A stretch of 22,551 bases of DNA, from the NCBI GenBank assembly GCA_040220235.1, contig JAVJTO010000161.1, one strand, 5' to 3'. The translations under genes were made by a program, and so were the position numbers. The stretch comes from Coleofasciculus sp. B1-GNL1-01 (GTDB lineage Bacteria; Cyanobacteriota; Cyanobacteriia; Cyanobacteriales; Coleofasciculaceae). Position 1 is the stretch's first letter, and each line of letters opens with the position of its first letter. Under the pieces are notes generated by a model, which was given only the letters and a program-made list of their open reading frames with translations, was not told where the DNA came from and ran no database searches. This document shows, in pieces, positions 4,295 to 12,285 of the stretch.

Positions 4295-4720
4295 GTGAAT
4301 ACCATGCAGCAGCAAGCAGAAAACCTGATTAAAGTCTTGAAATCCAAGGGGTTGAGGGTTACCCCACAGCGATTTTCTGTCTATGCCAATTTGCTGACTC
4401 GTTTTGATCACCCGACGGCAGATCAAATCCTCAGCGATCTCAATCACCAAGCGCCAACATCTTCTCAAGCGACTGTATACAGTGCGCTACAAGCACTGCG
4501 GGAAGTGGGACTGGTGCGGGAAGTTTTATTAGAGGAAGGTGTCTGTCGTTACGATGCGAATGTTGATCGCCACCATCATTTTCGTTGTCGCTGTTGCGGT
4601 GCGATTAAAGATATTCCTTGGGATACATTTGAAAGCATTGACTTAAACCGCCTACCGCCCGGTATGCAAGCTGAAAGCTATGAGGTGACGGTGCATGGAG
4701 TCTGCGATCGCTGTCAATGA
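4295..4720 (+). CDS. perR: Fur-family peroxide-stress regulator PerR (start may be ATG at 4304)
   Basis: GLRVTPQR, HPTAD, SQATVY, HHHFRCRCC and C-terminal CDRC motifs; divergent from the peroxiredoxin gene. Confidence 0.88.
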   Translation: MNTMQQQAENLIKVLKSKGLRVTPQRFSVYANLLTRFDHPTADQILSDLNHQAPTSSQATVYSALQALREVGLVREVLLEEGVCRYDANVDRHHHFRCRCCGAIKDIPWDTFESIDLNRLPPGMQAESYEVTVHGVCDRCQ

Positions 4721-4789
4721 TTTGTCATTTGTCATTTGTCATTTGTCATTTGTCATTTGTCATTTGTCATTTGTCATTCGTCCTTTGTC
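4720..4789 (+). repeat. Heptamer tandem repeat (ATTTGTC)x8 plus 2 degenerate units
   Basis: Counted directly; the same unit occurs at ~8611-8650 and, reversed, at ~7733-7750 and ~14514-14540. Confidence 0.95.
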
Positions 4790-4897
4790 GCGGAGATAGG
4801 GGAGTTCTCGGGTTGACTCAATTTTGCAATTTGACCGGGGCGGGTTTATACCAAGTTGCAGTCAAAGAAGTAATATGATGTCCGGCAAATCACCCTA

Positions 4898-7765: not shown

Positions 7766-8614
7766 TTAATCAGCCATCAATAACCAAAATCCGGTATACG
7801 TCATTCCCGAATCATCCGGTTGCACCAACAAAAAATGTAATCCCTGACTCGTTTGCTTGCGTTGTTCATACAACCTCGCCGCCGCCGCTACTTCTTCATC
7901 TTCAAAGGTTGCCATTACCCAGCGTTCCACTAATCCGGCTTCTAAAATTAACCCATCTGGCGCACCGGGAATATAATTAAGTGCTACAGGTTGCACCTCT
8001 TGCAGCCAACGCGCTAATGGCATCGACTGACGCCCCCCATCAATTACGACTCCGGGAACAGCTACCGTTGAGGCTAAACCTAATTGGAGGGGTAAGAGTT
8101 GATTTGGCATCTGTAAAATTGGAATCGGGCGTTGGGCAAACCCCTCCTCAATATCCCCTGCGGGAATACTAGCAAATCGCCAGCGATCGCCCCAGAGATT
8201 TTCGGGTAAGGGTACGGGTGGCGGTTTGTCCAAGCTAAGGGGATTGTACGCTTCCCCAGTGTAATTCTCGTGCTGTTGATAATCTAACGTTCTTTCCTGT
8301 AATCGTTGCTTTAAGGTTGGGGTACGTCGTGTGGCTTCTACCTTAATCTCTAATTGTTGTCCCACCTCTTGGAATAAATTGAATGACTGCGGACGAAAGA
8401 TGTGAATCGCATCCGGTAATCCTGTCTTAGTCGCCGCGATTTTCACCTGCGATAGCAACCAATCACGGGTTACATCTGGCTGAGGACAGAATGATTGATA
8501 TATAACATTACCTGTGGTGTCACAAATTAATAATTCCCATAAGACTTGTCCCGTTTCATCTCGCAGAGGACGCCGATAAAAATCTGCTTGCCAAACATTC
8601 ATTGATAAAGTCAT
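7766..8614 (-). CDS. Tab2/ATAB2-family RNA-binding protein (DUF1092)
   Basis: 282 aa; WQADFYRRP, WELLICD, PPPVPLPENLWGDRWRF and GLHFLLVQPDDSGMTYTGFWLL motifs. Confidence 0.9.
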   Translation of the reverse strand: MTLSMNVWQADFYRRPLRDETGQVLWELLICDTTGNVIYQSFCPQPDVTRDWLLSQVKIAATKTGLPDAIHIFRPQSFNLFQEVGQQLEIKVEATRRTPTLKQRLQERTLDYQQHENYTGEAYNPLSLDKPPPVPLPENLWGDRWRFASIPAGDIEEGFAQRPIPILQMPNQLLPLQLGLASTVAVPGVVIDGGRQSMPLARWLQEVQPVALNYIPGAPDGLILEAGLVERWVMATFEDEEVAAAARLYEQRKQTSQGLHFLLVQPDDSGMTYTGFWLLMAD

Positions 8615-8720
8615 TTGTCATTCGTCATTCGTCATTTGTCATTTCATTTGTAAAGTTGGGGCTGGTTTAGTTACATCTGGGTGTAACCAAAAAGATAGTC
8701 GTGAAACCCGCCCCTACACA

Positions 8721-8837: not shown

Positions 8838-9000
8838 TATCTGTCATTGTGGCTTTTATGAACTACGACGACTTACTTCGTTGAAGTCGTCGTTTCTGAC
8901 GCTTCTGAGCTCCTAGTTGCTTCATGCTTCCACAATCAGTAGAGCTAGGCAGCTCTGCGTCTGAAGAGGTTCGTTCCAAACCCCTTGCCCAAATCTCATT
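8838..9000 (-). ncRNA. Predicted omegaRNA/reRNA of TnpB (5' boundary approximate)
   Basis: By established TnpB biology the scaffold overlaps the tnpB 3' end and right-end hairpin, and the guide is the flank beyond 8858 (AAAAGCCACAATGACAGATA). Inferred, not directly visible. Confidence 0.55.
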
Positions 9001-9960
9001 AATTTGAGCAGCATTAACATCTCTATCTTCGACGTGCTTGCAGTCGGGATTAGAGCAAACATGAACTCTATCGCTCAAAGTCTTAGGCGTTAATTCCCAA
9101 CATTTAGCGCACCGTTGAGTTGGCTTGAGCGTCCTAGTTGGTGACTCAACATAAAACCCACCTGCCTCAGCCGATTTGTAGGTTAATAAATCACCGACTC
9201 TACCAAACCCAACGTCAAGAATAGACCGATTTAACCCGGCTTTTTGCTTCTTACGCTTACCCTTCTTTGCTTTCCGAGTCATACCCTTGACGTTTAACTG
9301 CTCACCACCGATTAGGCTATTACCGCTCACTATATCGCTGGTTACTTTGTGCAGCCAATTTTCCCGTTGTCGGGCTATCTTGCTCTGAAGTTTAGAGATG
9401 CGCTTGCGTTCCTTTTTCCATCGTCTCGATCCCTTAACTTTTTTGTTCCTATTAGGCGGTTTTTTACGTCTTAACCGCTTTGAGGCGGCTTTAACCTTCT
9501 TATGTCCCTCCTGAATAAAATCTGGTTTAGCGATTTTTTCGCCAGTTGAAAGCGTCACCGCGTCTTGGCAGCCAAGGTCGATTCCGATTGAACCCGTACC
9601 TGTTTGACGGATTGGGTTGCACTGCACAGTGATTGACGCATACCACAAACCATTTCTGAAAAAGATTGTGCAGGTTGTTGGAGTTCCCCAGGTCCTAGCT
9701 TGCCCCCGCATTTGAATCTTTAAACCAAGGTCTCTTAGTTCCAAGTAACCGTTTTTACCGTTAGATAAAGCCTTCCAACCTGCTTTGTCTGGATATGTCC
9801 AGCCACTATACCGCCGCTTGGCTTTGAACTTAGGATACTTGCCTAATCCTTTGAAAAATCGCTTATAGGCAAAATCAACCCGCTTTAATGTAGCTTGTAA
9901 CGTATGAGAACCTAATTCGGCATACTCAATCCAAACTTTCTTAAACTCAGGCAAACAGTT
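8863..9960 (-). CDS. tnpB: TnpB RNA-guided endonuclease, exon 2 (365 aa; spliced product 420 aa)
   Basis: Begins NCLPEFKKVW; RuvC motifs GIDLG, GEQLNV, DRDVNAA; Zn finger CAKC...CSNPDC; FPK/YPKFK linker; in frame with exon 1 after intron removal. Confidence 0.92.
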   Translation of the reverse strand, partial: NCLPEFKKVWIEYAELGSHTLQATLKRVDFAYKRFFKGLGKYPKFKAKRRYSGWTYPDKAGWKALSNGKNGYLELRDLGLKIQMRGQARTWGTPTTCTIFFRNGLWYASITVQCNPIRQTGTGSIGIDLGCQDAVTLSTGEKIAKPDFIQEGHKKVKAASKRLRRKKPPNRNKKVKGSRRWKKERKRISKLQSKIARQRENWLHKVTSDIVSGNSLIGGEQLNVKGMTRKAKKGKRKKQKAGLNRSILDVGFGRVGDLLTYKSAEAGGFYVESPTRTLKPTQRCAKCWELTPKTLSDRVHVCSNPDCKHVEDRDVNAAQINEIWARGLERTSSDAELPSSTDCGSMKQLGAQKRQKRRLQRSKSS

Positions 9961-11988
9961 ATTAAACTCAGCGAGACTGTCACCAGTCCCGCTGGTCTTC
10001 AAAACCGTGCGTGAAAGTTTCCTCTCACACGGCTCCTCAACGATAAGGTGCAAGTCAAGCATACCTCATTACCCATTTATCCTCGACTCTTTCGAGCCTT
10101 TTGGTGAGCTTAGGCTTGGCACTGTTACAGCCAGATTGGTTGCCGAGACTGCCATCTGTGACGGTCTTTGTGTCATGGCAATGTCTATGTAGAAGCTGCC
10201 AATTATCGTAGGAATCCTTTCCACCTTGCGACTTAGGGATTCTGTGGTCAACTTCCATCACATCGTTTTCACGGAAAATTAATCCGCAGTGAGTACATTT
10301 CCCTTTTTGCTTCTTCAACAATGTTGCCAGTGTCTTAGGCATTTCAGGGTTGTTACCCATCCTTGAACTCCAATAAACCAGGTTGCCGTTGTATGGGGAC
10401 GATTCGCCCTTAACCTTTACATAGCGCTTAATTGGTGTTTCGCTATGTTTTAGTAACCGCATCGGGTTATTACCTTTTTGCCTGGTTGCGAATACCCAGT
10501 TGTCGCCGTCTATGGATTGCCAATACTTCTTTGACACCCATTCCCCGGATTTTTTGGGGTGTCGGCGCTTTGCCCAAGCTCTGAGCTTCTGGTACATGAG
10601 GTAATCTTGGTCACAGTAAGCTACCTTACTTACTTGTGTTGCGTAGTAGTTAGCCCATCCCCGAATAATCGGGTTCAGTTTCTTAATTAGCGCCACTTGT
10701 GGCGCATTCCTGTGGGCGTTAATGACTTCCGCTATTTGTTCGTAGTGTACCTTCTGCTTATCCTTGCTTGGGGTGATGATTGGTTTGATTCCTAGCAATT
10801 TTCCATACTTATCTTTATCAGAGTGGTATTTACCCACCTTGTATTGACGTATAGTAAAACCAAGAAAGTCAAATCCTGGTTGTTCTTGCTCATACGGGTT
10901 GAGGGTGTGAGCAAGTCTTGTTTTGCTAGGTTTTAATTCCAAACCCATGTCTTTTAACCATTCCTGGATTATCTCCTTGCAACTTTGGACAACGGTTAAG
11001 TCTTCGTGGAGAATTACGAAGTCGTCGGCATATCTAATCACAGATGGAGGATAGAAGTCCTTTTTTTTCCCATTCTCGGAATATCCTCGTCTTGGGAATC
11101 TCTTTTTGATTAGATTTTCCATCCCGTGGAGGGCAATATTAGCCAATAACGGGGAGATGACCCCGCCCTGTGGCGTACCCTCAGTTGTTGGAAACAACTG
11201 CTTGTTATCCATCACTCCCGATTTTAGCCAAGCTCGAACTTGTCGGCGGATGGTAGGGAATGTATTCAGTTTGTTTAGCAGTGCTTCATGGTCGATTTGG
11301 TCAAAACATTTGGCAATATCGGCATCAAGGACGTATTTGCCCTTGAACTTGATTGCATTATATATAGCTTGAACCGCATCATGACATGAGCGTCCGGGTC
11401 TGAAACCGTATGAGTTAGCTTCAAATCGCGCCTCCCATTCTGGTTCTAGTGCCAGTTTGACAAGCGCTTGCAACGCTCGGTCGTTCATTGTGGGGATGCC
11501 TAATGGTCGCTTCTCATCCTTACCAGGTTTGGGAATCCATACTCGCCTGGTTGGGGCGACTTTTGAGCTTAATTTCAGATTGGCAATCAAGTTGAGACGC
11601 TGCTTTGGGGTCAGCGATTTAACGCCATCCACACCTGCCGTCTTCTTCCCTTGATTGTCTTGTGTTACCCGACGAACCGAGAGACATTTTGCCGCCCAAG
11701 ACTTCATCAACATCTTTTGGAGTCTGCGAGTTGTTTTCACATCACCACGCTGAGAGGCTTGATAGATTCTTTTCTGCAACTTAAAGACTTTACGCTCTAG
11801 CTTTTGCCAAGGTATTGTCTTCCATTCCACCGTAGTCTTTAAACTCGTCTTAGACATATATATTGCTACTAGAGACTCCATCTTCCTTATCATCGTGAGT
11901 CTGTTAGCATATCTCTCCTATTACAAGAGAGCTTTCGCTTTTAATCCTCTTTCCATTTCAGGAATAGTTTCTACCCAACGATTCGCAC
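9961..11988 (-). mobile_element. Group II intron (IIB, chloroplast-like class), 2028 nt, apparently lacking domain I
   Basis: 5' end GTGCGAATCGTT at 11988; domain V GAGCCGTGTGAGAGGAAACTTTCACGCACGGTTT (10035-10002, AGC triad, GAAA loop); domain VI CAGCGGGACTG-GTGA-CAGTCTCGCTG with bulged A at -8 (9968); 3' end AAT at 9961. Removal rejoins tnpB in frame. Confidence 0.92.
10055..11857 (-). CDS. Group II intron reverse transcriptase/maturase with HNH endonuclease (600 aa from the likely start MSKTS; ORF open to 11893)
   Basis: RT0 GKKTAGVDG, RPLGIPT, SYGFRPGRS, DADIAKCFD, GTPQGGVISPLLANI, RYADD, FDFLG; domain X LNPIIRGWANYY; HNH CTHCG...VDH...LLHRHCHD; no internal stops. Confidence 0.96.
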   Translation of the reverse strand: MSKTSLKTTVEWKTIPWQKLERKVFKLQKRIYQASQRGDVKTTRRLQKMLMKSWAAKCLSVRRVTQDNQGKKTAGVDGVKSLTPKQRLNLIANLKLSSKVAPTRRVWIPKPGKDEKRPLGIPTMNDRALQALVKLALEPEWEARFEANSYGFRPGRSCHDAVQAIYNAIKFKGKYVLDADIAKCFDQIDHEALLNKLNTFPTIRRQVRAWLKSGVMDNKQLFPTTEGTPQGGVISPLLANIALHGMENLIKKRFPRRGYSENGKKKDFYPPSVIRYADDFVILHEDLTVVQSCKEIIQEWLKDMGLELKPSKTRLAHTLNPYEQEQPGFDFLGFTIRQYKVGKYHSDKDKYGKLLGIKPIITPSKDKQKVHYEQIAEVINAHRNAPQVALIKKLNPIIRGWANYYATQVSKVAYCDQDYLMYQKLRAWAKRRHPKKSGEWVSKKYWQSIDGDNWVFATRQKGNNPMRLLKHSETPIKRYVKVKGESSPYNGNLVYWSSRMGNNPEMPKTLATLLKKQKGKCTHCGLIFRENDVMEVDHRIPKSQGGKDSYDNWQLLHRHCHDTKTVTDGSLGNQSGCNSAKPKLTKRLERVEDKWVMRYA

Positions 11989-12153
11989 CTGTTGCTCAAA
12001 ATAGTCAACAGAATGACCAAAACGCTTGTACTGCGTCCTCCGGTTAGCAATTGCCGCGTTATAGAGTTCGCCGTGCATTTTCCTAGCCCAATGAAGCTGG
12101 TCACATTGAGCCTTGTTTGGATAAATTCTATAGGTCACTCTACGTGTTTTCAT
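11989..12153 (-). CDS. tnpB: TnpB exon 1 (55 codons)
   Basis: MKTRRVTYRIYPNKAQ...LYNAAIANRR...SVDYFEQQ is a typical TnpB N-terminus (YRIYP, LYN). The ORF track's last residues VRIVG* are intron sequence. Confidence 0.9.
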
Positions 12154-12159
12154 GACTAT

Positions 12160-12168
12160 ATTTTACCA
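12160..12168 (-). promoter_or_regulatory. Putative extended -10 promoter of tnpB
   Basis: TGGTAAAAT (TGn-TAAAAT) six nt before the ATG; no Shine-Dalgarno sequence. Confidence 0.45.
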
Positions 12169-12285
12169 TAGAAATTTGACAAACTGCGGAATATTTAATT
12201 CCTAGTTTGTCTGCTATCCTTCCCCGACTTACTGTCGTTGAAGTCGGGGAATGCCGCAATTACGTTCAACAACCGTTACATCAAT

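Follow-up and report, generated by a model that had tools for sequence, protein, structure and literature searches.

A group II intron lacking most of its ribozyme core in an IS200/IS605 tnpB gene of Coleofasciculus sp. B1-GNL1-01

In Coleofasciculus sp. B1-GNL1-01 an IS200/IS605 tnpB gene is interrupted in frame, between codons 55 and 56, by a group II intron that lacks a 482-nt part of its ribozyme. Comparison with full-length relatives makes it highly probable that the intron arrived by retrohoming and afterwards underwent the deletion, so that neither the intron nor the tnpB gene, now knocked out, is functional any more. The two tnpB exons are intact, as is the ORF of the intron, a state which on its own would also be compatible with a working element. 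The window referred to below is the whole stretch of DNA analysed, 22,551 nt of contig JAVJTO010000161.1 (assembly GCA_040220235.1); the features discussed are compiled in Table 1.

Table 1. Positions of the tnpB element, its intron and related features in the window
Feature	Position	Strand	Remarks
IS200/IS605-type tnpB-only element, whole	8858..12264	(-)	3407 bp, 1379 bp without intron; no target duplication
Target motif (TAM) TTGAA, outside the element	12265..12269	(-)	in the G006 empty site (L080) TTGAA runs straight into the right flank
Left-end hairpin	12222..12249	(-)	read from the sequence; the C45 tnpA-tnpB element has a similar end
tnpB exon 1	11989..12153	(-)	55 codons; Pfam HTH_OrfB_IS605 26 bits, cut-off 21
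Intron target (IBS2, IBS1)	last 13 nt of tnpB exon 1	(-)	pairing with EBS2/EBS1 of a full-length relative
Group IIB intron, internally deleted	9961..11988	(-)	2028 nt; GUGCG start, AAU end; RF00029
Breakpoint of the 482-nt deletion	11941..11943	(-)	after intron nt 46-48; best single-deletion fit
Intron-encoded protein, intact	10055..11857	(-)	600 aa from the conserved ATG, 612 aa from 11893
Intron domains V and VI, intact	9961..10037	(-)	Rfam RF00029 54.8 bits, cut-off 40; ends exactly at 9961
tnpB exon 2	8863..9960 (coding 9960-8866)	(-)	365 codons + stop; NF040570 217.9 bits, cut-off 100
Right-end hairpin and terminal TTCAT	8858..8893	(-)	compensatory changes between window and C42; boundary from the G006 empty site

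The initial annotation had stated that tnpB is split in frame by a group II intron, and the lengths of the exons, the intron ends and the Rfam match terminating at the intron boundary agree with this. Joining the exons on paper, with EQQ at the end of exon 1 and NCLP at the start of the stop-free exon 2, gives a frame of 55 + 365 aa, in which, as had been claimed, the RuvC residues D183, E275 and D369 and the zinc-finger cysteines C339, C342, C357 and C362 are all present (motif positions). Alignment to an uninterrupted homolog and a search for an intron-free copy, which that annotation had proposed, led to a tnpB paralog elsewhere in this assembly, on contig C42. Its DNA is 94% identical, and its 420-aa product, with 26 amino-acid differences, is colinear with both window exons without any gap at the junction. 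Six of the differences between the window and the C42 copy fall within the final 22 nt of exon 1. Values of dN/dS for exon 2 and the intron ORF were between 0.10 and 0.17 (0.11 for the intron-encoded protein against the L043 intron), and no decay was visible. The ORF list also contained the 60-aa and the 399-aa frame described before, which bears out the warning that ORF calls are misleading at this locus.

The insert possesses GUGYG...AY ends, domains V and VI and, in domain IV, an ORF for an RT-maturase-HNH protein, and it belongs thus to the group II introns. Compared with the intron-free C42 paralog, it is inserted precisely and without target duplication, and just about 130 nt lie between the 5' splice site and the intron ORF. 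The encoded protein comprises a reverse transcriptase with YADD, a maturase and an HNH domain (TIGR04416, 331 bits at a cut-off of 300; Pfam RVT_N, RVT_1, GIIM and HNH); its best plasmid matches were cyanobacterial ltrA/RT genes (67-74%). We take this protein to be of the chloroplast-like (CL) class, and the class of the intron presumably differs from that of RmInt1, with which it is compared below. All Rfam matches in the window were to group II introns and none to a group I intron, the kind that characterises IStrons. The nesting of a retroelement in a DNA transposon, in reverse order to that of IStrons, had thus been recognized correctly.

While the window intron has 2028 nt, three copies in genome G003 have 2511 nt and one in G009 has 2519 nt, all four residing in the same tnpB site between EQQ and N; twelve more distant complete introns have 2488-2640 nt. 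The four relatives, identified in a search of 61 genomes, are approximately 92% identical and match nucleotides 1-47 and 49-2028 of the window intron with a long stretch in between. Alignment to the 2511-nt intron of L043 gave 1879 identities and 148 mismatches. Gone with the 482 nt are J2/3, domain II, most of domain I (including EBS1 and EBS2) and, at the base of domain III, the 5' strand; the intron retains domains IV-VI, the distal part of domain III and the 5' strand at the base of domain I. The domain names derive from the fold and from gamma-gamma' covariation and not from a curated structure. In all seven introns showing the J2/3 motif, out of 13 examined, the base that opens the motif covaries with the one that ends the intron; in the window intron the motif is absent.

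The missing stretch also contains the words by which the relatives appear to select their target. One of its loops pairs at six of six positions with the last six exon bases in all six targets tested, and a second word pairs at four to six of six positions with exon positions -13 to -8. For three distant introns, the equivalent loop pairs at five to six of six positions with their different exons; under its strict boundary patterns, the wider structure alignment behind this comparison retained five of 21 loci, and two of 21 in its other version. These words can be read as EBS1 and EBS2. They are found in L043 and L046 and are absent from the window intron, the first 130 nt of which contain no 6-nt complement of IBS1. 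The target in window exon 1, on the other side, matches EBS2 and EBS1 of a full-length relative at 6/6 and 6/6 positions, with one G-U pair each.

As most of domain I including EBS1/EBS2, domain II and J2/3 are deleted, splicing of this copy in cis is not expected from what is established on ribozyme structure, in which domain I serves as the scaffold and holds the exons in position (PMC4424553). The earlier proposal that splicing rebuilds TnpB and gates its output is not supported for this copy. Among group II intron copies in bacteria, most have been truncated or inactivated (PMC4424553), and in Enterobacteriales 87 of 198 copies are full length (PMC3522654).

The deletion rests on a single draft assembly of 172 contigs. 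It could be an assembly error, the true intron being of full length and its splicing both producing the 420-aa TnpB and setting its level, and the intact exons, intron protein, domains V-VI and target pairing as well as the full-length copies in relatives would fit such an error. However, in the full-length relatives the two breakpoint regions have no word longer than 5 nt in common, too little for a repeat to have collapsed. The missing piece lies on no other contig: nothing in the rest of the assembly matches it at more than 70% over its length, the nearest sequence being the C45 intron (70%). Moreover, even RmInt1, an intact intron residing in an IS, spliced at 0.07% in vivo (PMC3035460). 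We consider an assembly error unlikely. The deleted form was encountered in one genome, and none was present among the matches listed in 51 other genomes; these matches include one in G063, on whose sequence none of the conclusions depends. Of 24 sequencing runs listed, 20 carry part of the locus words, with a best share of 0.35 and none reaching half; such small shares are no evidence.

The copy without ribozyme might also have been retained as an expression cassette for the intron protein and a translationally coupled 399-aa TnpB devoid of its first 55 residues. An ATG overlapping the stop of the intron protein does open a frame through domains V-VI into exon 2, and the same ATG exists in L043, L045 and L046. 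This frame is likewise open through domains V-VI in eight of eleven distant introns at unrelated sites, which indicates a by-product of the ribozyme sequence, and we rejected it as a tnpB-specific adaptation. Furthermore, the 55 residues that are missing align to the N-terminal region of a solved TnpB (8bf8), and the deleted form was encountered in a single genome, making a cassette very unlikely. It is extremely improbable that this copy retains splicing through another RNA that provides the missing domains in trans, a situation known from the discontinuous introns of chloroplasts. Trans-splicing from separate pieces is possible for group II introns (PMC4424553), and what is left here comprises domains IV-VI, the distal part of domain III and the 5' strand at the base of domain I, but the assembly contains nothing closely similar to the missing piece, and the nearest sequence, the C45 intron, is complete and lies in a different tnpB site. 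The full-length members in G003 and G009 restoring an active 420-aa TnpB by splicing and moving as a retroelement-in-transposon composite, with the same taking place here by way of an assembly error or domains supplied in trans, is an improbable scenario.

The host element shows subterminal hairpins and an insertion 3' of a short motif without duplication, the traits of the IS200/IS605 family. Its boundaries are common to the C42 copy and the G003 copies and were fixed by an empty site in G006, in line with the claim that both IS ends are intact. On the basis of TnpB biology, the right end is presumed to be the 3' end of the omega-RNA scaffold. Whether the composite could be moved by TnpA acting in trans, as had also been suggested, appears doubtful within this genome, because the sole tnpA beside similar ends, on C45, is truncated and frameshifted (draft assembly) and the intact IS200-type tnpA genes of C63 and C86 adjoin other end hairpins. 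The latter genes, the two whose flanks were read (the remaining Y1 matches are distant), share 37% and 24% identity, respectively, with the G003 homolog. No empty site with at least nine guide matches after TTGAA was found in the own genome, and a promoter scan gave five sites against 5.3 expected and thus no signal. A 74-nt piece (G000:C30:88357-88430) matches the right end alone of this IS family and is possibly a short non-autonomous copy or a guide-RNA remnant.

The IS copies in the window (12264-12155) and at G000:C42:30510-30630 have swapped flanks. In G006 the left flank of the window is joined to the right flank of C42, and the C42 left flank precedes the gene of the window right flank; G003:C52 carries the IS at the first of these loci (window left flank/C42 right flank). 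An allele switch between IS nucleotides 94 and 110 points to a crossover there, and a real rearrangement seems more likely than a misassembly. Heptamer tandem repeats are common in filamentous cyanobacteria, and short ones with very many matches genome-wide were seen at window positions 4720-4790 and 8610-8651. ORFs near both contig ends (165-326, 1084-1446 and 22135-22308) resemble transposase fragments by eye.

G003 contains two identical introns whose host IS copies are almost the same but occupy unrelated loci. A third intron of this genome differs by 1 nt and lies in a tnpB whose DNA is only about two-thirds identical; this distribution across two tnpB types argues for recent retrohoming. 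Since G003 also harbors intron-free copies with an identical exon 2 (L032 and L047, the former also with the same target), composite transposition and repeated homing are indistinguishable there. Of 24 stretches examined, eight lacked a usable 5' boundary or flank; in the other 16 the sequence upstream of the related intron could be read, and 7 of these introns, the C45 intron included, abut tnpB, at several different positions. Distant relatives of this kind abut tnpB at its 3' end, in RuvC III or in its middle (L008, L016, L017 and L021). Exact junction-pattern scans, whose patterns are insensitive, yielded one real tnpB-intron junction among 12 genome-contig matches (L092, a duplicate locus) and none among 12 metagenome-contig matches.

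The strain contains further introns. A second, complete group II intron of 2547 nt (G000:C45:6200-10950, L002) lies within a 3' fragment of tnpB, in its third RuvC motif, and directly adjoins the element with the broken tnpA, the tnpB of which contains an empty perfect target for the window intron. Neither this target nor the matching one in C42 has been invaded. Escape of the C42 copy through target mutation was rejected, as it still pairs at 6/6 positions with EBS1 and at 5/6 with EBS2. At G000:C83:12583-17210, two tandem group II intron ORFs are 55-57% identical to the window protein, possibly representing a twintron or a tandem insertion.

During retrohoming, the spliced RNP reverse-splices into the sense strand, HNH cuts the other strand and the RT makes the copy. 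For the window element, we propose that a conserved codon stretch of tnpB around the EQQ-N junction, matched by the EBS words as the target pairing demonstrates, was the landing site of a cyanobacterial group IIB intron, which would have entered this IS copy by the RNP/HNH/RT route. Soon after homing, the deletion revealed by the comparison would have taken away J2/3, domain II and the greater part of domain I. Judging from knowledge of ribozymes, an RNA without EBS1/EBS2 and J2/3 could neither define the 5' splice site nor build the active site. Transcripts would then yield the 60-aa stub and perhaps the intron protein, without full TnpB, and the intact right end may still give omega-RNA for TnpB from the C42 copy. 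The signatures of purifying selection on the intron protein and exon 2 suggest that insertion and deletion are both recent, and we infer that the element is a young double relic. More speculatively, an RT-HNH ORF without ribozyme in tnpB resembles the proposed intermediate of HNH capture, but the site is N-terminal and not within RuvC.

The arrangement, the target site and the idea of composite transposition have been known since 2016 (PMC4810608, Fig. S9). In Suppl. Fig. S9, Kapitonov, Makarova and Koonin (2016) described three 2511-bp introns encoding RT, maturase and HNH in Coleofasciculus chthonoplastes, inserted at the EQQ-NC/SL site of two TnpB types in the elements IS605-1_CC and IS605B-1_CC. 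They stated that composite transposition and independent insertion cannot be told apart and mentioned many other tnpB insertions; Anabaena and Nostoc are named in the main text, and the supplement uses these as comparison IS copies (PMC4810608). The window intron shares with the published ones the insertion point, the domain set, the orientation and a protein of about 600 aa, and our full-length relatives share their length and copy pattern (two identical, one 1 nt off, two tnpB types). The window copy differs in being approximately 92% identical to these relatives and in lacking 482 nt of ribozyme, the comparison with PMC4810608 being one by description and not by sequence file. A literature search, with subscription papers mostly outside its coverage, found no test of the splicing of these tnpB introns.

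Introns of TeI3 family F4 in ISEL1 of Thermosynechococcus elongatus are likewise cyanobacterial and home to a conserved site of the IS200 family; they have kept the ribozyme and have no ORF, whereas the window copy has kept the ORF and lost the ribozyme core (PMC2882425). RmInt1 in ISRm2011-2 is also a group II intron within an IS gene, yet it is intact and mobile despite its low splicing and has a different host IS (PMC3035460). IStrons combine an intron and tnpB in one mobile unit as well, but as group I introns that enclose the IS genes and have common ends with them, in contrast to the group II intron inside tnpB in the window (bioRxiv 10.1101/2023.11.20.567912).

As a relic of a published arrangement, the window copy has little consequence by itself. 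It calls for caution, in that perfect junctions, intact domains V-VI and an intact RT ORF do not prove the ability to splice, a question settled here by comparing the length of the intron with that of its relatives. For the question of how much TnpB remains once an intron has invaded, which the 2016 paper did not answer (PMC4810608), the full-length relatives provide suitable material in the form of identical IS copies with and without the intron.
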